Shown here piece after piece: positions 21,099 through 30,317 of a stretch of DNA of 32,000 bases. Source of the DNA: Vibrio vulnificus CMCP6 (GTDB taxonomy: Bacteria; Pseudomonadota; Gammaproteobacteria; Enterobacterales; Vibrionaceae). Every line of letters starts with the position of its first letter. Position 1 is the stretch's first letter. Both the position numbers and the translations under genes were made by a program. The stretch spans positions 1,860,001 through 1,892,000 of the forward strand of contig NC_004459.3 in assembly GCF_000039765.1 (NCBI RefSeq), given 5' to 3'. Under the pieces are notes generated by a model. It had not been told where the DNA came from. It saw only the letters and a program-made list of their open reading frames with translations, and ran no database searches.

Positions 21099-21830
21099 AT
21101 GAATACCAGTAACAATTCTGAATACGATCGTATCGTCGTGCTCGATACGGAAACCACGGGTATGAACCGTGAAGGTGGCCCACACTATATGGGGCACAGA
21201 ATCATCGAAATCGGGGCGGTGGAGATCATCAACCGCAAGCTGACCGGGCGACATTTCCATGTTTACCTTAAGCCAGACCGTGAAATTCAACCCGATGCGA
21301 TCGATGTTCACGGTATTACCGATCAGTTTCTAGTTGATAAACCGGAGTATCGTCAAGTTCACCAAGAGTTCCTAGAGTTCATTAAAGGGGCTGAGCTGGT
21401 GGCTCATAACGCGCCCTTCGACGTGGGCTTTATGGATTATGAGTTCGGTAAACTCGACGCCGCCATCGGCAAAACCGATGACTACTGCAAGGTGACCGAT
21501 ACGCTGGCGATGGCGAAGAAGATCTTCCCTGGCAAGCGTAACAACCTAGACGTTTTGTGTGAACGCTACGGCATTGATAACTCACACCGAACGCTTCACG
21601 GGGCATTGCTCGATGCGGAGATTCTGGCTGATGTTTACCTGCTGATGACCGGTGGGCAAACCAGTTTGGAGTTCAACGCCAACTCGCAAGAAGGCGGTGG
21701 TGAAGACATTCGCCGAGTGGCGGGGCGAAAATCTCTTAAGGTTTTGCGTGCAACGGCCGATGAATTAGAAGCGCACCAATCTAGATTGGATATTGTAGAA
21801 AAAAGCGGAACTTGCCTCTGGCGTCAATAG
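21099..21830 (+). CDS. dnaQ: DNA polymerase III epsilon subunit (3'-5' proofreading exonuclease, 243 aa)
   Basis: ExoI VLDTETTG, ExoII AHNAPFDVGFM and ExoIII HGALLDAEILADVY. It is divergent from rnhA as in E. coli. Confidence 0.95.
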   Translation: MNTSNNSEYDRIVVLDTETTGMNREGGPHYMGHRIIEIGAVEIINRKLTGRHFHVYLKPDREIQPDAIDVHGITDQFLVDKPEYRQVHQEFLEFIKGAELVAHNAPFDVGFMDYEFGKLDAAIGKTDDYCKVTDTLAMAKKIFPGKRNNLDVLCERYGIDNSHRTLHGALLDAEILADVYLLMTGGQTSLEFNANSQEGGGEDIRRVAGRKSLKVLRATADELEAHQSRLDIVEKSGTCLWRQ

Positions 21831-21838
21831 GAGAATCT

Positions 21839-23089
21839 ATGTTGAGGACATTGTCAGTCGTATTATTGTTATTGGTTAGTTGTGTAAGCCATGCTGCGAC
21901 AGAGTCGACCATGTCCTTGCTGGATAACCGCTTTCGAGTGGATCCAACCATCGATCAAATCACTTTCTTGATTTATCGCGAAAATCCTTCTCAGCCCGTG
22001 GTGCTAGTGCGACCAGATGGTCGAAAATACTACGCCTTCAAAAGCTACCCCAACGTCCGCTGGTATCAAGAGTCAGCCATGGACATTATCTCTATCGACA
22101 ACCCAATGCCGGGCCCTTGGCAAGCCGTGGGAAAAGTGAGCCCCAAAAACAACATTCGGCTGATTTCTCACCTGACGCTTTCAACGGATCTCTTCCCCAG
22201 TCGTTTGTATCATGGCGAAGTGATGAAATTCACCGCAAGGCTCGCATCGGATGATAAGCCGTTAGTCCTGAGAGATTTCCTTGATCGCGTCAATCTAAAA
22301 GTGACTTTCACGAAGTTTGTTGAAAACGAGCAAGATTTAGTAAAAGAAGCGCGTCCAGTTCCCATTGTTATTGGTGATTTTAGCGATGATGGCACGGGCT
22401 TAGATGAACGAGCTGGCGATGGTGTGTTTACTGTGCAGTTGCCTATCGAAGTGGACCCGGGCAAGTATCGGGCGCGTATCACCTCAGGAAATGGCGTGTT
22501 CCTACGAGCCAAAGAACAGGAAGTGCTGGTCTATCCTAGCCCTGTTTCTACCACCTTCATTCAGTCACGTGATGAAGGCAAGCCACACAGTATTGTGGTT
22601 TCAGGCGAGCAAGGCATGGTGCAGCCTGGGTCTTTGGCGGTTCACATTGAGCAAAGTGCTCCGGATGATTTCGTCAATTATGTGCAAGGGCAGGCGGACA
22701 AAGAGAGCTTAAAAGTGTCGATGCTGCTCGATAGTAGTCAGATGATCGGCATTTATGGTTGGAAGGGTGAAGTGTTCGCCACTGACGCCGCAACACAGCG
22801 CCCATTGATGTTCCCCATCTCACAACAAACGTTCAGTGTTGTGAAAGAGGTGGATATTGAAGCCGCGCGCAAAGCCAAAGAAGCCGCGCTTGCAGAACAA
22901 CGCCGCATTGAAGAAGAACAACGACTTTTGGCGCAAAGAGAGGCCGATCGTAAACAAGCCATCATGATGATTGGTATTGGTAACGTGGTAGTCATCTTAC
23001 TCGGGCTGGTGGTGTGGTTCGTCTGGGGCAAGTTGCGAGCAAAACGCCAAGCCATTCCAGAGATGCAATTAGAAGTGCCGAAGAAATAA
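21839..23089 (+). CDS. Conserved exported, C-terminally membrane-anchored protein of unknown function (416 aa; possibly the TIGR03503 family, from memory only)
   Basis: AGGAGA SD 4 nt before ATG 21839. Signal peptide MLRTLSVVLLLLVSCVSHA. Beta-rich body, then a charged coiled coil (EAARKAKEAALAEQRRIEEEQRLLAQREADRKQ) and a TM anchor (AIMMIGIGNVVVILLGLVVWFVW). Confidence 0.6.
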   Translation: MLRTLSVVLLLLVSCVSHAATESTMSLLDNRFRVDPTIDQITFLIYRENPSQPVVLVRPDGRKYYAFKSYPNVRWYQESAMDIISIDNPMPGPWQAVGKVSPKNNIRLISHLTLSTDLFPSRLYHGEVMKFTARLASDDKPLVLRDFLDRVNLKVTFTKFVENEQDLVKEARPVPIVIGDFSDDGTGLDERAGDGVFTVQLPIEVDPGKYRARITSGNGVFLRAKEQEVLVYPSPVSTTFIQSRDEGKPHSIVVSGEQGMVQPGSLAVHIEQSAPDDFVNYVQGQADKESLKVSMLLDSSQMIGIYGWKGEVFATDAATQRPLMFPISQQTFSVVKEVDIEAARKAKEAALAEQRRIEEEQRLLAQREADRKQAIMMIGIGNVVVILLGLVVWFVWGKLRAKRQAIPEMQLEVPKK

Positions 23090-23160: not shown

Positions 23161-23775
23161 ATGTCGAAGAACAAAGTTTTGGTGATTTATGCTCACCCGT
23201 CGCAACATCGCTCAGAGGTCAATGCGCCACTCTTTGCCGCAGCGCAAGCCGTTGACGGTGTCACGTGTGTCGATCTGTATGCCGAGTACCCTCAGTTCGA
23301 CATCAACATCGACAAAGAACAAGCTCGACTGCTGGAACATGATGTCATCGTGTTTCAGTTTCCTCTTTACTGGTATTCCACCCCTGCATTACTGAAAGAG
23401 TGGCAAGACTTGGTGCTGGAATACGGCTTTGCTTACGGGACAGATGGAACCGCTTTGAAAGACAAGCTGATGCTCTGTGTGGTTTCTGCAGGAGGCAAAG
23501 AAGAAGCATACAAAGCGGAGGGGTATAACCACTTTACCATTCGTCAATTGTTGGCACCGATTGAACAAATGGCCGCGCTAACCAGTATGCACTACCTACC
23601 ACCGTTTGCGATATTTGGTGCACGTACGGCGTTAGAGGAAAATCGTATTGATCAGCATGTCGAGCGCTACGCGACTTTGCTGCGTGCTTTAGTGGAAGAT
23701 CGAGTCAATATCCACGCCGCCAATCATTTGAACAAAATCACTCATGCCCTACCTCAAATCATCAAGGAAGCCTGA
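23161..23775 (+). CDS. Flavodoxin-like NAD(P)H quinone oxidoreductase, KefF/KefG-type ancillary subunit of the K+ efflux system (204 aa)
   Basis: KVLVIYAHP..., LYAEYPQFDINIDKEQ, VFQFPLYWYSTPALLKEW and LPPFAIFG align with both E. coli KefF and KefG. The stop overlaps the next start (TGATG at 23773-23777). Confidence 0.8.
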   Translation: MSKNKVLVIYAHPSQHRSEVNAPLFAAAQAVDGVTCVDLYAEYPQFDINIDKEQARLLEHDVIVFQFPLYWYSTPALLKEWQDLVLEYGFAYGTDGTALKDKLMLCVVSAGGKEEAYKAEGYNHFTIRQLLAPIEQMAALTSMHYLPPFAIFGARTALEENRIDQHVERYATLLRALVEDRVNIHAANHLNKITHALPQIIKEA

Positions 23776-25724
23776 TGACTCAAATATTTTTACAAGCCTT
23801 CATCTACCTGATTGCCGCAGTGATTGCCGTGCCATTAGCAAAACGCTTTGGCCTAGGTTCTGTGCTTGGGTACCTTATCGCTGGCGTGGTGATTGGCCCC
23901 ATCGTTGGTTTGGTCGGGGAAGAAACCACCACCATTCAGCATTTCGCCGAATTTGGTGTGGTGATGATGTTGTTTTTGGTCGGTTTAGAGCTTGAGCCTA
24001 AAATGCTTTGGGCAATGCGTAACCGCTTGTTGGGACTAGGCGGCTTACAAGTTGCGGGTACTGCTGGGATTATTGTGGCGATTGCTGTCTATTTCGGCCA
24101 AGTGTGGACCACGGCCTTAGCGATTGGATTGATTTTCGCCTTATCATCAACGGCGATCGTGTTGCAGACCTTTAACGAGAAGCGATTAAGCAAGACGGAA
24201 GGGGGTAAAAACGCGTTTTCTGTGTTGTTGTTCCAAGACATCGCGGTCATTCCGATGCTGGCTTTCATCCCACTGCTCGCCCTGCCTGAATTGGTCGAGC
24301 AAGCTCAGCAATCCATCCAATCGGCCTCGGAGCATCATGAACAGTTGAGCCTGGTTGCCGGCTTACCTGGCTGGGCCTATGGTATCGTCATTACACTTTC
24401 CATTGGCGTGGTGATCGTCGGTGGGCATTACCTCAGTCGCCCGATCTTTCGTTACGTGGCCGATTCCGGCTTAAGAGAAATTTTTACCGCAGCTGCATTG
24501 ATGCTGGTGATTGGTATTGCGGCGTTGATGAGTTTAGTTGGACTTTCTCCTGCGTTGGGCACATTTTTGGCGGGCGTCATGCTGGCAAACAGTGAGTTTC
24601 GTCATGAGCTCGAATCGAATATTGAGCCTTTCAAAGGGCTGCTTTTGGGCTTGTTTTTCATTACGGTCGGAGCGGGCATCGATTTTACCATTCTCTTCAA
24701 TAAGTTTGGCACCATCATCGGTTTGACGTTGGCGGTGATGCTCCTGAAAGCCTTGGTGTTACTGGCGCTGTCGTTTATTTTCCGCATAAAAGGCAGTGAT
24801 CGTTGGCTGTTTGCATTGAGCTTGGCGCAGGCGGGTGAATTTGGTTTTGTGCTGCTGAGTTTCTCAGTACAAAATCACGTGATATCGACGCCTCTCTCCC
24901 AGCAACTCTCACTGGTGGTGGCGATCTCCATGTTTCTCACTCCGGGTCTATTTATCCTCTTTGATCGAGTTATTTTGCCGAAGTTCGCCACTAAGTTTAA
25001 TGAAAGAGCCGATGATGACATTGATGAAAAAGGCACAGTGATCATCGCTGGTATTGGGCGCTTTGGACAGATAGTCAATCGCTTATTGTTGTCTAACGGA
25101 ATTAAAACCGTTGCACTTGATTACCAAGCAAATCAGGTAGATGTGATGCGACAGATTGGCACTCAAGCTTACTTTGGTGATGTGACTCGCCCCGATATTC
25201 TGCACACCGCGGGAATTGAAGAAGCGGCCGCGATTGTGGTCGCGATTGATAATCGCGATGCCAGTGTAGAGTTAGTCAAGCAGGTTAAGCACGCTTACCC
25301 TAGTGTGAAAGTCATCGCCAGAGCATTTGACCGTGGACACGGTTATCGTCTGCGCCAAGCCGGGGCGGATGTGATTGAGTCAGAGACTTATCATTCGGCA
25401 CTAGAAGTGGGCGGGCAAACCATGAAATTATTGGGGGTTCATCCGTTTTTTGTTGAGCAACAAAAGATGAGATACAAGCGCGTTGAAAATCGTAAGTCAG
25501 ATTCTTTGTACAGCGCTTGGTTAGACGATTCAGAAGGTGAGCGTTTTGATAACAACTACAGAAAGTTGTTTATGCAGCTTGAAGAAAAAATGATGTTGGA
25601 AATGCAAAAGGATCGCCATACCAATCTTTCTCGCTCCGAGCGGGGTTGGACACCGCCCCCCAAAGATTACGCGGACGATCTGCAAGAGCTCAACAATGAG
25701 GTAAATGATCTCAACTTCAAATAG
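23775..25724 (+). CDS. Glutathione-regulated K+ efflux / CPA2 monovalent cation:proton antiporter, KefB/KefC-type (649 aa)
   Basis: About 12 TM segments, then an RCK/TrkA-N Rossmann motif (VIIAGIGRFGQIV). It is coupled to the KefF/G-like gene upstream. Confidence 0.85.
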   Translation: MTQIFLQAFIYLIAAVIAVPLAKRFGLGSVLGYLIAGVVIGPIVGLVGEETTTIQHFAEFGVVMMLFLVGLELEPKMLWAMRNRLLGLGGLQVAGTAGIIVAIAVYFGQVWTTALAIGLIFALSSTAIVLQTFNEKRLSKTEGGKNAFSVLLFQDIAVIPMLAFIPLLALPELVEQAQQSIQSASEHHEQLSLVAGLPGWAYGIVITLSIGVVIVGGHYLSRPIFRYVADSGLREIFTAAALMLVIGIAALMSLVGLSPALGTFLAGVMLANSEFRHELESNIEPFKGLLLGLFFITVGAGIDFTILFNKFGTIIGLTLAVMLLKALVLLALSFIFRIKGSDRWLFALSLAQAGEFGFVLLSFSVQNHVISTPLSQQLSLVVAISMFLTPGLFILFDRVILPKFATKFNERADDDIDEKGTVIIAGIGRFGQIVNRLLLSNGIKTVALDYQANQVDVMRQIGTQAYFGDVTRPDILHTAGIEEAAAIVVAIDNRDASVELVKQVKHAYPSVKVIARAFDRGHGYRLRQAGADVIESETYHSALEVGGQTMKLLGVHPFFVEQQKMRYKRVENRKSDSLYSAWLDDSEGERFDNNYRKLFMQLEEKMMLEMQKDRHTNLSRSERGWTPPPKDYADDLQELNNEVNDLNFK

Positions 25725-25758
25725 TGTTATTTGATTTTTGTAAGACCAAGGTTGACTG

Positions 25759-25813
25759 AAGCCATTGCTATTCAGTGTGTCTTTTCGACGGGCATATTAT
25801 TGAGCAATGGCTT
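25759..25813. repeat. Inverted repeat between convergent kefB/C and immunity gene 2 (possible kefB/C terminator; left edge of the island)
   Basis: AAGCCATTGCT (25759-25769) pairs with AGCAATGGCTT (25803-25813), an 11-bp perfect stem with a 33-nt loop. It runs into a T-tract (25812-25816) on the plus strand. The immunity gene 2 stop codon (25815-25817) abuts it. Confidence 0.45.
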
Positions 25814-25814
25814 T

Positions 25815-26495
25815 TTAACATATCAGATTCCCATCGGCGTCGTATTCAGCGCGAGTGCCCATATCTTCTTGATATTCTTCAATTCGGGTAAAACGACAAT
25901 CAAGAGGTTGGTATTTTTCCATGATTTCTTTAACGGATTTATGTACGACGAGGCAATCCGTAAACTGCAAGTCATCCCAAATCAAGCGTTTTTCCAAGGG
26001 CACGGCAGCGAGTTTTTCTGGTGATAAGACGATTTTTTCGAAGGTGTAGAGCGGAGGCAGGTAGTCGGCAAAGACATCTTTTTCGTACTCGCTCTGGTCA
26101 AAATCAACGAAATCGTAATAGGCATAATCTCGGTCTACAGGATTTCGGAAAAAATTCAGGTAGTGGTAATCATCGTGGTAAGTGTCATCGTCATTGATGA
26201 TAACGGCTCTCAGCCATTGCGCTCCGGTGATATCGATATGGCGCAGTGCCAGATACAGCTCGCGTTTCACCATCATGTTTCTGCCGGACATATGTAAGTT
26301 ACACAACTGGTGGTGAATCCCCTGACTTACATCTTCATCCCTAAAGCCGTTTTCAAAGTAGAACCAGCGGTTGGTGTTTTCTTGAAACTGATTAAACGTA
26401 AGATCAGCTCCTGCATTTTTCTCATGACCAGTCAAAACCATAGCGTGCTCGCCCACGCGCTGGTAAACCACATAATAATCAGAAAACTTATTCAT
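25815..26495 (-). CDS. Putative nuclease-immunity protein, copy 2 (226 aa; acidic; possibly DUF1629/Imm11-like)
   Basis: Last gene of the PAAR/nuclease operon, with an ATGA overlap to copy 1. No signal peptide or TM segment. About 92% identical to copy 1. The family guess rests on size, context and a ...DDLQFTD.LVVHKSVKEIMEKY... block, not on a search. Confidence 0.6.
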   Translation of the reverse strand: MNKFSDYYVVYQRVGEHAMVLTGHEKNAGADLTFNQFQENTNRWFYFENGFRDEDVSQGIHHQLCNLHMSGRNMMVKRELYLALRHIDITGAQWLRAVIINDDDTYHDDYHYLNFFRNPVDRDYAYYDFVDFDQSEYEKDVFADYLPPLYTFEKIVLSPEKLAAVPLEKRLIWDDLQFTDCLVVHKSVKEIMEKYQPLDCRFTRIEEYQEDMGTRAEYDADGNLIC

Positions 26496-27179
26496 ATTAG
26501 ATTCCCATCGGCGTCGTATTCTGCGCGAGTACCCATGTTCTCTTTATGTTCCTCTATCCGAGTAAAACGACAGTCGAGAGGTTGGTATTTTTCCATGATT
26601 TCTTTAACGGATTTATGTACAACAAGTCGGTCAGTAAACTGCAAGTCATCCCAAATTAAGCGTTTTTCCAAGGGCACGGCAGCGAGTTTTTCTGGTGATA
26701 AGACGATTTTTTCGAAGGTGTAGAGCGGGGGCAGGTAATCAGCAAAGACATCTTTCTCGTACTCGCTCTGCTCAAAATCAACGAAATCGTAATAGGCGTA
26801 ATCTCGGTCTACAGGATTTCGAAAAAAATTCAGGTAGTGGTAATCATCGTGGTAAGTGTCATCGTCATTGATGATAACGGCTCTCAGCCATTGCGCTCCG
26901 GCGATTTCGATATGGCGCAGTGCCAGATACAGCTCGCGTTTCACCATCATGTTTCTGCCGGACATATGTAAGTTACACAACTGGTGGTGTATCCCCTGAC
27001 TTACATCTTCATCCCTAAAGCCATTTTCAAAGTAAAACCAGCGGTTGGTGTCTTCCTGGAAGTCATTACCCGTCAGGTCTCGTGGAACATCATTTTCATG
27101 CCCGACTAACACCATGGCGTGCTCGCCTACACGCTGGTAAACTACATAATAATCAGAAAACTTACTCATATCAGATTCC
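25819..27179. repeat. Tandem direct duplication, period exactly 674 bp (2 full units plus a 13-nt third junction copy)
   Basis: Unit A is 25819-26492, unit B is 26493-27166, and a partial third copy is 27167-27179. The junction motif CATATCAGATTCC occurs at 25819 and 27167, and as CATATTAGATTCC at 26493. The units are about 90% identical by hand alignment. Confidence 0.9.
26492..27169 (-). CDS. Putative nuclease-immunity protein, copy 1 (225 aa; acidic)
   Basis: Starts 1 nt after the nuclease stop, with an AAGGA SD 7 nt upstream. By hand count it has about 43 D/E versus about 25 K/R. That is typical of nuclease inhibitors paired with a basic toxin. Cytoplasmic (no signal or TM). Confidence 0.6.
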   Translation of the reverse strand: MSKFSDYYVVYQRVGEHAMVLVGHENDVPRDLTGNDFQEDTNRWFYFENGFRDEDVSQGIHHQLCNLHMSGRNMMVKRELYLALRHIEIAGAQWLRAVIINDDDTYHDDYHYLNFFRNPVDRDYAYYDFVDFEQSEYEKDVFADYLPPLYTFEKIVLSPEKLAAVPLEKRLIWDDLQFTDRLVVHKSVKEIMEKYQPLDCRFTRIEEHKENMGTRAEYDADGNLI

Positions 27180-28028
27180 TTGCTTTAATGTCCATTTATC
27201 ACCTTTGGGCCAGGTGATCACTCGGTTGTTCCAAATCGCATGTTCTTTGCTTAATTCAGGGCGTTTAAAGTTGTACTTTCGGTCGGTTTGGCCAAAATGG
27301 TTGCAGCCAACGGGGCAGCGTTCACTGGTTTCTCGAGCTTTTGTAATGTTGGTTTGGCCTCGGCATCCCACGTATGAAGAAAAATTGTTGGGGATATTGG
27401 TAAGAGCCACTTCACAAGATATGATTTGATCCAATAAACGTTTGCTTATTTTGTTTGTGATATCGTCGATATTAGGTGTTTTATCGCTTGCTTTTGTGTT
27501 AGGGGGACATCGTTTTAAATGTTCTTTGACCTTTTCAAGTTCATTTTTTACGGTGGTGTGATAGGCCTTACTTTCTACGGGCTTGTCTGGGTGTTCGCCT
27601 CGGTGTGCTTGCAAGCCTAAATGGCACGCCCCTGGCAAGGTTGCGGGCAAGCCGACTAAGTTGTCGAGGGTGTCGATGATATATCCAGCGTTGACTAACT
27701 TTTGAGCATTGCGTTTATCCAAATGCGCCCCTTTAGATGAGATTAAGTGATGGGTCTCCATATGAATGCCCAGAAAATAGGGGTGAGGCTCGCCATCCAC
27801 ATACCAGCGATTCGCGATCTGCGAGCGTTTATGCGCGGGGCGCAGCATGGCTTCTGCTTCGCTGGCCAGTTTCCAGTTGTACTTAGACCTGACATTGGCA
27901 ATCCACCGTTGTCGGTAGTCCATTTTTTCTAAGTTGCCCAATGTTTGTGGTGATTCTGAGTCATCCGAGCTTGGGTTGCCTAACGATGGCGAGGGTGAGT
28001 TTGTTCCGCTCGGTTTAATATTACGCAT
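27171..28028 (-). CDS. Putative HNH/EndoVII-fold (AHH-clade, THH variant) nuclease toxin, free-standing (285 aa)
   Basis: Motif string: HMETHHLIS (aa 89-97), GYIIDTLDNLVGLP (115-128), CHLGLQAHRGEHP (135-147) and AYHTTV (155-160). This fits the s-HH / N..LP / H....H.G.H..Y pattern of AHH-type His-Me finger toxins. Net basic. GGGAG SD 8 nt upstream of the ATG. Followed by acidic immunity-like genes. Confidence 0.7.
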   Translation of the reverse strand: MRNIKPSGTNSPSPSLGNPSSDDSESPQTLGNLEKMDYRQRWIANVRSKYNWKLASEAEAMLRPAHKRSQIANRWYVDGEPHPYFLGIHMETHHLISSKGAHLDKRNAQKLVNAGYIIDTLDNLVGLPATLPGACHLGLQAHRGEHPDKPVESKAYHTTVKNELEKVKEHLKRCPPNTKASDKTPNIDDITNKISKRLLDQIISCEVALTNIPNNFSSYVGCRGQTNITKARETSERCPVGCNHFGQTDRKYNFKRPELSKEHAIWNNRVITWPKGDKWTLKQGI

Positions 28029-30045
28029 AATTTAATCTCCCGGCTCTGACGGGCTTAGTATCGTGGCCTGTTTTTCCGCACACGCGACATCTTGGTGGTT
28101 TGTCATCACGTTTTGGCGTCGAAACGCTCTTTTTCACCGTTCGATTGGTCCAACCCGTGAATGTCGTTGATAGTGCTTTGGATCTTGCAATCGCGATTTT
28201 TTTCAGTTTTTCGAACAGTGCAAGAAGTTGCTCAAATGCACTCAAAACTGCGTTAAGTCCACTTCGCATGTTTTGTACCGCTTTGTTGTGGCTTACTGCC
28301 TTGGCAAACATATTTGAGTATTTCGCTACTTTTTGAGACGTTGCTGCGGCTTTGACGGCGGCTCCTGCTCCGACCGAGATCAGACCAAGTAGCAATACCA
28401 ACAAAACTTCGAGAGCGATGTAAATGCCAGCTTTTCCTAGACAGTAGGTATAAAAATTAGGTGGGATCTCTTCAAAAATACGCATGATGTAGTCGAGGTA
28501 AAGCAAGACACTGTCATCTTCTTCTAACAACGCAATGAACAAGTGGAAATCTGAACTGTTACGTAACTTTTGAGCTAAGTCTGGATCAATTTCGTCTAGT
28601 GTTGACTCTATAAATCGTTGGATTTCTTTCACTTTTCGTTGTCTGATATGGCCAATTAATGCAAATATCTCCTCTCTGTATTTTACGTAAACACTTAACT
28701 CTTCAGCGGAGTTGACGGCTTTGTTGTAAATATCGAGTGGGCTATGTTCAGCAAAGAAAATTTCTATCGAGTCAGGTACTAGTGGCTCAACAACAACATC
28801 ATAAGCAATGCCAGAATAAAGCTTGGTCATTTCTGTTACACCAATGGCGAAGACATGCGAGTCAGCTTGTAGTGTCTCCAGCCAGTTACTCTCTATCGCC
28901 TTACCGCGCTCATCATATTTTATTGCGCGGATTCCATTGATGATGTTTGTACGAGCCTGAATAAATCGGTGGTCAATTTTATTCTGTATGCTTGATGCAT
29001 ATTCGCCTAATGAATCCCAACCGCGTGACAACCCTTCGGATAAGGTATCGCCAAGTTCTCCCCAAAGCTCTGGTGTAAACAAATCCAGTTGATCAGAGCT
29101 CCATGCAACAGCACCATCGTAAACGCCGTCGGCAAGAGTTAGCCATCCTCGTTCTGCCCATGCTTCATTGAATGGTTTCATGCTGTCTGAGACCGATGTA
29201 AAGATACTATCGAGTTCTTTGTGTAACTCATCAGTTAACTGTTTTATTTCACTAGCAGAACCACTCTTCCCAAGCACATCAACAAGAACCTTGGTTTGTT
29301 CGAGAGGAATATTTTCAATAACGTGGACACCGGGTTCAAATTGTTCAGATTGTTTTGCTTCTTGTACTTCGTAATGGTCAGAGTTGCGTTTTGTGGTTCC
29401 CTTCGTGTGCTTTGTTGAAGCCTCTACTTCGTGAACGAGTTTCTGAGAGCCATCGCTGGACTCAGTGCTAATGACCGAGCTATAAAACGGAATCGCGGTA
29501 TTCCAAAGATCATCATATTCCAACCGGATCTTGACCCAACTGAACTCTTCTTTCTCTGCTTCTGTTGCAAAGCTTTCGCCGTCTGTTCTAGCCGTTATAT
29601 CTTCATGCTGTTGGAATTGATCAGATAGGGAAGATTGCAATAATGGTTGATGGCTTTGTGATGTAGCCAGCGAGCTTGCGCTCTCTGCGGTACTTTCTTT
29701 AGCAGATGTGGAAGAGCTTTTAGGCGCAGGAGAGGGTTGGACGACAATCCCTGCATCTCCGATAAGCACTGTTCCTGCACCGCTAATTATAACCCCGCCA
29801 TGGGATGAACTATCGCCCAGTCTTGCAGCGGGTTTACCGTTAATAAAAACTGACGATGATCCACCAGATATACTATCTGCTGGGCCTACACATACGATTG
29901 AATCGCCTTCACGCGCAGCTGGAAGCCCCTCAATGAACACATTTGGAGAGCCGTTAACGATTGGTCCCCCCACATGGGGCACTTTACCCGTCTTTTTAGG
30001 GCAGACGTGAAAATCGGAGATGCGTGCCGCTGGCTTTTTACTCAA
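28021..30045 (-). CDS. PAAR domain-containing protein with a long uncharacterised C-terminal extension (674 aa, TTG start); putative T6SS spike-tip carrier or effector
   Basis: Residues 5-96 carry three PAAR-type repeats (KPAARISDFHVCP...PHVGGPIV; GLPAAREGDSIVCVGP; GKPAARLGDSSSHGG), as in Rhs-type PAAR domains. An S/T/A/P-rich linker follows (about aa 101-165), then about 370 aa with no motif I recognise. One hydrophobic helix spans about aa 539-567, followed by a basic tail with CRVCGKTGH. TTG is the only possible start, because an in-frame stop lies 3 codons upstream. Confidence 0.85.
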   Translation of the reverse strand: MSKKPAARISDFHVCPKKTGKVPHVGGPIVNGSPNVFIEGLPAAREGDSIVCVGPADSISGGSSSVFINGKPAARLGDSSSHGGVIISGAGTVLIGDAGIVVQPSPAPKSSSTSAKESTAESASSLATSQSHQPLLQSSLSDQFQQHEDITARTDGESFATEAEKEEFSWVKIRLEYDDLWNTAIPFYSSVISTESSDGSQKLVHEVEASTKHTKGTTKRNSDHYEVQEAKQSEQFEPGVHVIENIPLEQTKVLVDVLGKSGSASEIKQLTDELHKELDSIFTSVSDSMKPFNEAWAERGWLTLADGVYDGAVAWSSDQLDLFTPELWGELGDTLSEGLSRGWDSLGEYASSIQNKIDHRFIQARTNIINGIRAIKYDERGKAIESNWLETLQADSHVFAIGVTEMTKLYSGIAYDVVVEPLVPDSIEIFFAEHSPLDIYNKAVNSAEELSVYVKYREEIFALIGHIRQRKVKEIQRFIESTLDEIDPDLAQKLRNSSDFHLFIALLEEDDSVLLYLDYIMRIFEEIPPNFYTYCLGKAGIYIALEVLLVLLLGLISVGAGAAVKAAATSQKVAKYSNMFAKAVSHNKAVQNMRSGLNAVLSAFEQLLALFEKLKKIAIARSKALSTTFTGWTNRTVKKSVSTPKRDDKPPRCRVCGKTGHDTKPVRAGRLNYA

Positions 30046-30079
30046 TGTGTTCTACCTACGTCATGGTTTGAATGGCGAG

Positions 30080-30109
30080 ATTATCAAGACCAAAGCAGTG
30101 AAGTAGCAA
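30080..30109 (-). promoter_or_regulatory. Candidate sigma70 promoter for the PAAR operon
   Basis: On the minus strand: TTGCTA (30109-30104), an 18-nt spacer, then GATAAT (30085-30080), about 35 nt upstream of the TTG start. Sequence match only, and several other weak matches exist in the AT-rich leader. Confidence 0.3.
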
Positions 30110-30267
30110 TGAAATATGGTCGGTTTTTGATTGGAATGCGAACGATAGCAACGATATATGTAACTGATAATTAAGTTTTTATTTCTAATTAAAACACGTA
30201 ACGCAACTTTGGTGTTTTTGCCGCTGAACAAGAGGTTTATTGAAAGGCGGTAAGAGTCTTTATACAT

Positions 30268-30291
30268 AAAAAAACGGGAGCTCGGCTCCCG
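30268..30291 (-). terminator. Rho-independent terminator of fadE
   Basis: The minus strand reads CGGGAGC-CGA-GCTCCCG followed by TTTTTTT (A-run 30268-30274 on the plus strand), 27 nt after the fadE stop. Confidence 0.85.
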
Positions 30292-30317
30292 TTGTACTTG
30301 TGATACTTTTGTGGTGA

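Follow-up and report, generated by a model that had tools for sequence, protein, structure and literature searches.

We analysed a stretch of 32,000 nucleotides (nt) from Vibrio vulnificus CMCP6 (NCBI RefSeq assembly GCF_000039765.1, contig NC_004459.3, positions 1,860,001 to 1,892,000 of the forward strand; hereafter the window), in which four minus-strand genes lie between the core genes kefC and fadE. Exact database matches identified chromosome I of this strain as the source of the four encoded proteins (accessions in Table 1). An earlier note, made from the letters of the sequence without database searches, had read the four genes as an orphan effector-immunity module of a type VI secretion system (T6SS). 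The layout that it described was reproduced, with four open reading frames (ORFs) of which the first and second overlap by 8 nt, the second and third are 1 nt apart and the third and fourth overlap by 4 nt, and the terminator-like hairpins that it had seen at kefC and fadE are both real. The first gene encodes a 674-amino acid (aa) protein with an N-terminal PAAR domain and a long C-terminal region, called here the carrier; the second encodes a basic AHH nuclease and the last two encode small acidic proteins of the Imm11 family. No vgrG, hcp or adaptor gene is present within the 32 kb window, and with PAAR, AHH and Imm11 components but no spike or adaptor gene nearby, the orphan module reading was upheld.

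Two of the three proposed identities were confirmed directly. The PAAR domain scored 84.8 bits against the Pfam PF05488 profile (cut-off 27), and its putative metal-site residues H13, C15, H24, C52 and H82 are invariant in alignments down to 35% identity. The nuclease scored 48.4 bits against PF14412 (cut-off 22.3) over aa 89-194. Its signature reads T92-H93-H94, with a threonine replacing the alanine found in other members, and residues H89, H93, H94, N123, H142, H146 and H157 remain invariant down to 36% identity. The Imm11 assignment required a different route: the two acidic proteins reached only 13.9 and 15.6 bits with PF07791, below the cut-off of 22.1, so the direct Pfam assignment was dropped and profile-profile comparison was used in its place. 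When the V. vulnificus immunity family was aligned by hhalign to the proteins that follow AHH genes in other genera, the match was 99.6% (E = 1.4e-23, 203 columns); six members of this syntenic family pass the Imm11 cut-off, and its profile matches MXAN_0049, the Imm11 prototype (PDB 6a4c, E = 5e-4). Because of the hhalign match and this link to 6a4c/MXAN_0049, both small proteins are assigned by profile comparison to the Imm11 family. They are acidic (pI ~4.8), as opposed to the basic AHH protein, and immunity gene 1, located 1 nt after the AHH gene, is presumed to be the cognate of the AHH allele in the window. In UniRef, AAO10294 is labelled 'Immunity protein 43 domain-containing protein', at variance with the Imm11 family found by the scans here; two syntenic homologues give weak secondary Imm43 matches, which fits a kinship between Imm11 and Imm43.

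By analogy, the V. vulnificus AHH protein is probably a DNase: DNase toxicity and its neutralisation by the downstream protein have been demonstrated for the relatives MXAN_0050 (PMC12077131) and V2a (10.1101/740209). A conserved Y-[RK]-x-R helix occupies the AHH N-terminus. Beyond the Pfam domain, the C-terminal region of the protein (aa ~197-285, window 27171-27440) carries a G-C...C-x(3-5)-[ND]-H pattern and an I-T-[YW]-x-K...[YW]-x-L-K end, both common to the homologues from L013, L016, L018, P0198 and P0218; this region may bind DNA or provide a second metal site.

Table 1 Features of the kefC-fadE region in the window (positions in the window, aa numbering within each protein).
Feature	Position	Strand	Description
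PAAR-carrier gene	28021..30045	-	674 aa, TTG start; AAO10296 / WP_011079795; ORF and Pfam PAAR_motif
PAAR domain, aa 1-100	29746..30045	-	Pfam match aa 19-88, full profile 1-70 of 70
Ser/Ala/Gln low-complexity linker (aa ~101-160) and ~100-aa module (aa ~161-261)	29263..29745	-	alignment
Carrier domain, aa 262-674	28024..29262	-	all-alpha; family search and AlphaFold2
Hydrophobic segment, aa ~533-569	28339..28449	-	Kyte-Doolittle 19-aa maximum 2.53
C-terminal Cys/His 'knuckle' and terminal motif	28024..28089	-	C653-R-V-C656-G-K-T-G-H661-D-T-K-P...G-R-L-N-Y-A-stop
AHH (HNH/EndoVII) nuclease gene	27171..28028	-	285 aa, pI 9.4; AAO10295; Pfam AHH
AHH catalytic domain, aa 89-194	27447..27764	-	holds polymorphic r1 (aa 100-117) and r2 (aa 158-172)
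Imm11-family immunity gene 1	26492..27169	-	225 aa, pI 4.85; AAO10294; profile-profile comparison
Imm11-family immunity gene 2	25815..26495	-	226 aa; AAO10293; 92% identical to gene 1
kefC	23775-25724	+	flank, convergent with the operon
kefC terminator hairpin and U-run	25751..25824	+	between kefC and immunity gene 2; -31.5 kcal/mol, z = -3.56
fadE	from 30318	-	flank, co-directional with the operon
fadE terminator	30293-30273	-	9-bp, GC-rich hairpin
Intergenic and operon 5' region	30046..30317	-	holds fadE terminator (30273-30293) and weak sigma-70-like site (30109-30080)

The earlier note had described the PAAR protein as a carrier without a toxin. Profile and Foldseek searches indeed detected no toxin family or fold in its C-terminal part, but the note had overlooked that this part is a conserved and uncatalogued domain coupled to AHH and Imm11. 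No Pfam or NCBIfam model covers residues ~262-674. An exhaustive family search with residues 160-674 as query returned 86 representative proteins, in which the domain (~262-674, strongest at ~440-674) sits C-terminally in proteins of many lengths; judged by this conservation, it is a real domain family and not filler. An AlphaFold2 model built from 24 sequences is all-alpha, with a predicted local distance difference test (pLDDT) of 65, a predicted template modelling score of 0.60 and confident regions at aa 262-301 and ~441-626, and it had no significant neighbour in PDB by Foldseek (best E = 0.25). The hydrophobic segment listed in Table 1 is the only long and strong one of the protein, a brief peak of 1.6-1.85 being located inside PAAR at aa 83-85, and it is directly preceded by a near-invariant I/V-P-P-N-F-Y-x-Y-x(2)-G-K motif. 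Of 85 representatives, 44 have at their very C-terminus a basic tail with the signature C-[RK]-x-C-x(3-4)-H-x-T-P-x(3-6)-G-x-[VIL]-x-Y (many of the others are fragments), and 17/17 other carriers compared have it as well; nearly all carriers stop 0-2 residues past the tyrosine of this motif. Purifying selection was evident among six V. vulnificus alleles, for which the ratio of nonsynonymous to synonymous substitution rates (dN/dS) was 0.18 over the whole PAAR-carrier gene, 0.11 in the carrier and 0.06 in aa 527-674, comprising the helix and the tail; dN was 0 in the PAAR domain, the linker showed relaxed constraint (0.38), and the AHH gene outside its variable regions gave 0.09.

The carrier is found in several contexts. 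It follows PAAR, as in the window, or a Tox-PAAR-like/DUF4150 domain; it is fused to a full VgrG in L026 and L028 and closes an Rhs protein in P0219; and it is encoded as a free-standing protein immediately downstream of vgrG (L017, L018) or of a PAAR-like gene (L022). The carrier-effector-immunity module therefore recurs behind interchangeable spike or delivery domains, as loading platforms do. No prePAAR/Eag-type arrangement was found in the window, where PAAR is complete at aa 19-88, the hydrophobic segment lies at aa 533-569 and no chaperone gene adjoins. Full-length relatives of the 674-aa protein fall into four clusters, and all other matches share the PAAR end alone. The ~100-aa module between linker and carrier (window 29263-29565), recognisable by the motif W-x-K-I-x(3)-Y-D-D-L-W-x-T-x(2)-P, recurs in the PAAR-like- and Rhs-fused relatives P0154, P0155 and P0219; it is seen in PAAR-, PAAR-like- and Rhs-fused versions and not in the free-standing carriers of ~400 aa. 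A 386-aa PAAR protein from V. parahaemolyticus (P0005) was considered as an AHH relative and rejected, as it showed no similarity.

To follow the carrier outside V. vulnificus, 15 loci were fetched from species-representative genomes of more than 10 genera, with members from Alteromonadaceae, Reinekea, Chromobacterium, Duganella, Pseudoduganella, Pseudoalteromonas, Cellvibrionaceae, Enterovibrio, Saccharospirillum, Ketobacteraceae and a Lentisphaeria metagenome-assembled genome (MAG). The gene after the carrier encoded AHH in 15/15 loci (10/10 by Pfam, three by translation and two by an [AT]HH motif), at a spacing of -8 to +34 nt. Imm11 came next in 9 of the 10 loci tested, six of these scoring above the cut-off, and one to six Imm11 genes followed AHH in the loci of other genera. 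L013 and L014, two V. vulnificus-like loci that have diverged to 31% and 37% identity, show the same gene order. Moreover, two proteins (P0198 and P0218) are natural carrier-AHH fusions, and in both the joint falls exactly between the terminal motif of the carrier and the N-terminal Y-[RK]-x-R motif of AHH. In the window, the AHH gene overlaps the PAAR-carrier gene in another frame by the 8 nt ATGCGTAA, an overlap by which it is predicted to be translationally coupled to that gene. None of 18 loci contained a second type of immunity gene, only Imm11 paralogues. Because of the synteny, the fusions, the purifying selection and the lack of a second immunity type, the carrier is most likely a dedicated AHH partner. 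Neither the carrier family nor its exclusive tie to AHH-Imm11 appears in the libraries and literature searched, and both are new in that sense.

Could the carrier instead be a second toxin, a membrane-inserting alpha-helical pore-former, with AHH as an independent second effector? An all-alpha bundle with a strongly hydrophobic segment of ~35 aa is indeed reminiscent of pore-forming colicins and of VasX/Tme-type effectors, and a further PAAR protein of V. vulnificus is joined to a VasX-like pore-former (PMC13348674). We nevertheless consider a second toxin unlikely. The carrier model showed no Foldseek similarity to colicins or other pore-formers, and the strict 15/15 coupling to AHH, together with the two fusions, would be unexpected for an independent toxin. 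Pore-forming effectors normally require a membrane immunity protein, and in the 18 loci AHH is followed only by cytosolic acidic Imm11 paralogues. As a separate observation, the closest in-species relatives of the PAAR domain are 1180-aa PAAR-VasX-like (PF20249) proteins encoded at other V. vulnificus loci (P0006-P0060), apparently the PAAR-MIX pore-forming effector enriched in clinical isolates (PMC13348674); both kinds of PAAR effector may compete for one VgrG tip.

The earlier note had further proposed that the operon was acquired horizontally, as an island, and had suggested comparing the kefC-fadE flanks in relatives to see whether they adjoin without the insert. The island reading was not supported, and no empty site was found. 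Ten other genomes retrieved by the exact KefC sequence of the window, including YJ016 and MO6-24/O, lack the toxin, and their kefC-fadE gap contains tandem 225-aa genes alone, in 1, 3, 4, 5 or 8 copies; Imm11 genes occupied this place in every V. vulnificus genome examined. Each of the 42 copies examined is intact, and together they encode 33 distinct proteins, 83-100% identical to one another, with a dN/dS of 0.13. The toxin-less strains retain the whole fadE-PAAR intergenic region, at 96.6-100% identity, upstream of the immunity array, and all ten share a scar consisting of the first 23 nt of the PAAR ORF, ~80 nt of filler and the final 15 nt of the AHH reading frame, which abut the first immunity gene. 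In toxin-positive strains, sampled through five other AHH alleles (a sampling that yields no estimate of frequency), the order is fadE, PAAR-674, AHH-285, 2, 4 or 6 immunity genes and kefC, wherever the contig spans the array. Because the ten toxin-less genomes share one scar retaining the ends of both PAAR and AHH, we regard the four-gene state as the older one at this site and toxin loss as derived, having occurred once in the ancestry of the sampled toxin-less genomes. Orphan immunity arrays are thus a feature of other strains and not of the window.

The scar filler matched nothing in any fetched locus. It encodes a 28-codon ORF, MSNQPFPKGSLVHRKPKPLTDITARNLI (L003-L012; e.g. L007:14070-14190, minus strand), the stop of which overlaps the start codon of the first immunity gene (ATATGA), an arrangement also seen where one immunity gene meets the next; judging from this overlap, the small ORF may preserve translational coupling of the orphan array. 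In another strain (GCA_030420785.1, L032:4984-7008) the PAAR-carrier gene is broken into ORFs of 468 and 203 aa next to an intact AHH gene and two intact immunity genes; the strain may be on the way to losing the toxin, or may serve as a natural experiment on the dependence of AHH on the carrier. Outside Vibrio, six Imm11 genes follow a single AHH gene in Pseudoalteromonas maricaloris (L021:7385-11367), and four or five paralogues follow one in a Cellvibrionaceae MAG (L022:7442-10420). A tendency to form arrays seems to belong to the module in general.

Base composition had been the other argument for an island. The operon is the GC minimum of the window, but the reported contrast of 37-42% against 52-55% was overstated, having been taken from unrepresentative 60-nt lines: GC is 45.0% in the island, 47.5% in the window, 48.4% in kefC and 50.4% in the part of fadE included. 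GC at third codon positions (GC3) of the AHH and immunity genes (0.49) is on a par with fadE (0.50), and only the PAAR gene is low (0.39). Because the difference amounts to just ~2.5 points, the argument for horizontal transfer drawn from it is weak. A recent insertion between adjacent kefC and fadE could further appeal to the differences between strains at this locus and to the patchy distribution of the carrier family across distant taxa. It is nonetheless quite improbable in view of the missing empty site, the Imm11 genes in all genomes examined and the single scar with both gene ends; besides, in another assembly a homologue with 76% identity likewise comes right after fadE, and, as the earlier note had observed, the window has no mobility genes such as an integrase, no tRNA (0 found) and no flanking direct repeats, its sole direct repeat being the 674-nt tandem duplication of the immunity genes. 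An ancient acquisition predating the diversification of the species is possible.

That the PAAR and AHH genes are frameshift-broken halves of a former fused effector, and the operon a decaying non-functional remnant, might be suspected from their 8-nt overlap in different frames, from the existence of fused carrier-AHH proteins, from the disrupted PAAR gene of L032 and from the absence of both genes from most strains, but we discarded it as extremely improbable: the split is kept with intact ORFs at 31-37% identity, in the 15 other loci and across more than 10 genera, nearly all carriers end at the same tyrosine, both genes are under purifying selection, and read-through fusion is impossible because an in-frame stop lies two codons upstream of the AHH ATG.

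Toxin and immunity alleles at this site proved to be mosaics. The immunity proteins are built of a few cassettes at four patches (aa 22-41, 116-140, 174-183 and 207-211), and the AHH alleles vary at r1 and r2. Across six alleles, four AHH r1 classes match the patch-1 classes of the adjacent immunity gene one-to-one, and two r2 classes match two patch-3/4 classes perfectly. Linkage inflates this concordance, which under random pairing would have a chance of ~1/45 (r1) and ~1/15 (r2). However, r2 sits between r1 and the immunity gene and yet reassorts independently. No positive selection was detected, dN/dS being 0.17 in the immunity patches and 0.28 in the AHH variable regions, and dS was very high in both (0.92 and 0.84, respectively). 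High dS combined with dN/dS below 0.3 suggests that the variable segments are old allelic classes shuffled by recombination and not the outcome of recent diversifying selection. Immunity gene 2 of the window has patch 1, 3 and 4 classes like those found beside a different AHH allele (P0124), and the copies in orphan arrays bear signature types seen beside circulating AHH alleles. The libraries and literature searched contain neither mosaic immunity arrays of a single family at this locus in V. vulnificus nor the modular covariation of toxin and immunity, and both are new in that respect.

Taken together, we assign a probability of about 0.7 to the reading of the operon as a spike-borne carrier with an AHH cargo and Imm11 immunity. 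A T6SS is available in the host: T6SS2 was present in all V. vulnificus strains studied and is the only one of CMCP6 (PMC5087951, PMC13348674). The PAAR domain of the 674-aa protein would cap a VgrG spike, in CMCP6 presumably that of T6SS2, and the flexible linker would join it to the all-alpha carrier of ~410 aa. The AHH His-Me-finger DNase would be made from the overlapping gene by translational coupling and would dock non-covalently to the carrier, most likely through the Cys/His knuckle and the G-x-V-x-Y end contacting the N-terminal Y-R-x-R helix of AHH; if AHH binds the carrier in this way, we propose that it therefore travels on the spike as cargo. In the producer and its kin, the acidic Imm11 proteins would bind and neutralise AHH, and the second copy, together with the arrays of 1-8 copies in other strains, could widen protection to other circulating AHH alleles. 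After firing, the single hydrophobic helix of the carrier may enter the target inner membrane and aid the passage of the nuclease into the cytoplasm.

Several points weigh against this reading. Binding of AHH by the carrier is predicted from the fusions and the 15/15 synteny, and the AlphaFold2 model of the natural fusion P0198 was unusable (mean pLDDT 39.5), while the carrier tail was disordered in the monomer model. Membrane translocation may be suggested by one hydrophobic segment and by analogy. A large carrier is no general need either, as single-domain PAAR proteins suffice for AHH delivery in Myxococcus xanthus (PMC12077131). The covariation described above comprises just six alleles of physically linked genes. 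Finally, the first V. vulnificus study observed no antibacterial activity of T6SS2 (PMC5087951); a later paper, however, refers to activity of both T6SSs of the species (PMC13348674).

A bolder version, which we hold only tentatively and consider doubtful, is that the carrier represents a widespread AHH-exclusive family acting as dock and built-in inner-membrane translocator, in which the Cys/His knuckle completes or clamps the nuclease, and that the Imm11 arrays constitute a combinatorial repertoire. If so, the module would resemble a colicin-like 'translocation domain plus toxin' split over two genes, and separate Imm11 patches would read separate variable regions of the toxin.

The earlier note had not recognised the combination of genes as a described cluster, but orphan operons of PAAR, separate AHH and Imm11 genes have been published and validated by experiment in M. 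xanthus (PMC12077131). The V. vulnificus operon is hence a known kind of orphan effector-immunity module with an undescribed carrier domain; our literature search found no paper naming these CMCP6 proteins. Like the loci of MXAN_0050 (AHH) and MXAN_0049 (Imm11, 6a4c), it lies off the T6SS cluster and consists of a PAAR gene, a separate basic AHH and acidic Imm11, in M. xanthus at times with one or two extra imm11 genes (PMC12077131, PMC12077181). There, the PAAR gene is required for AHH delivery and related immunity proteins cross-protect (PMC12077131, PMC12077181). In contrast, four of the M. xanthus loci use single-domain PAAR proteins whereas the V. vulnificus protein has a ~575-aa extension with the carrier, and V. 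vulnificus arrays reach up to eight Imm11 genes, mostly without a toxin.

Similarities to other systems are partial. With the loading-platform modules of Kanarek et al. 2023 (PMC10435454), which are based on RIX or on a C-terminally extended PAAR or VgrG, the module shares its three-gene logic and its interchangeable spike domains, and no toxin domain was detected in its extension, but the platforms described are TTR-like or other small domains, as opposed to a ~410-aa all-alpha domain with a hydrophobic helix, a Cys/His tail and a single toxin family, AHH. Among PAAR-associated toxins, AHH is reported to be the most frequent (PMC8651086). As in V. parahaemolyticus VP1415/VP1416 and the Agrobacterium tumefaciens V2a DUF4150-AHH protein, AHH would travel on a PAAR or PAAR-like protein via the T6SS, and a V. 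parahaemolyticus pan-genome study mentions PAAR modules that encode the toxin in a gene of its own (PMC9765294); in VP1415/VP1416 and V2a, however, the toxin is fused straight to a PAAR-like (PIPY/DUF4150) domain without a carrier, and the available text of these sources does not name the carrier among its domains (PMC9765294, PMC11883445, 10.1101/740209). Orphan immunity genes without an effector, beside effector remnants and in arrays of variable length, are also known from V. cholerae, but those belong to different families and derive from sequential effector replacement (Kirchberger et al. 2017, PMC5361080), whereas the V. vulnificus arrays consist of mosaic paralogues from one family, with 83-100% identity, and the effector was removed once, leaving a single scar common to the ten toxin-less genomes examined.

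The combination of PAAR with a hydrophobic helix, and the possible passage of the nuclease through the inner membrane, recall the prePAAR/Eag-chaperoned effectors such as Tse6. Effectors of the Tse6 type reportedly have transmembrane domains N-terminal to PAAR, an adjacent DUF1795 chaperone and a fused toxin. Unlike them, the V. vulnificus protein has its hydrophobic segment on the C-terminal side and no Eag gene, and its toxin is encoded separately. It is still poorly understood how T6SS nucleases get onto the spike and how they cross the inner membrane of the target, and a carrier with a hydrophobic helix, found with AHH behind every spike type, would offer a mutable handle on both steps. 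In addition, V. vulnificus provides a natural series, with at least six AHH alleles in toxin-positive strains, 1-8 immunity genes in strains that lack the toxin, and a single broken carrier; it is suited to testing whether orphan arrays protect against kin and how specificity is encoded.

The remaining ~26 kb of the window comprise housekeeping genes (rseP, bamA, skp, lpxD, lpxA, lpxB, rnhB, dnaE, accA, tilS and others). Among them, between the RNase T gene and kefF, a 425-aa ORF at 21812-23089 (plus strand, TTG start; 416 aa in some genomes) had 0 Pfam matches. A hydrophobic stretch lies in the N-terminal part of its product and a charged coiled-coil in the C-terminal part, with a hydrophobic helix after the coiled-coil; the ORF is kept in every V. 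vulnificus locus seen.

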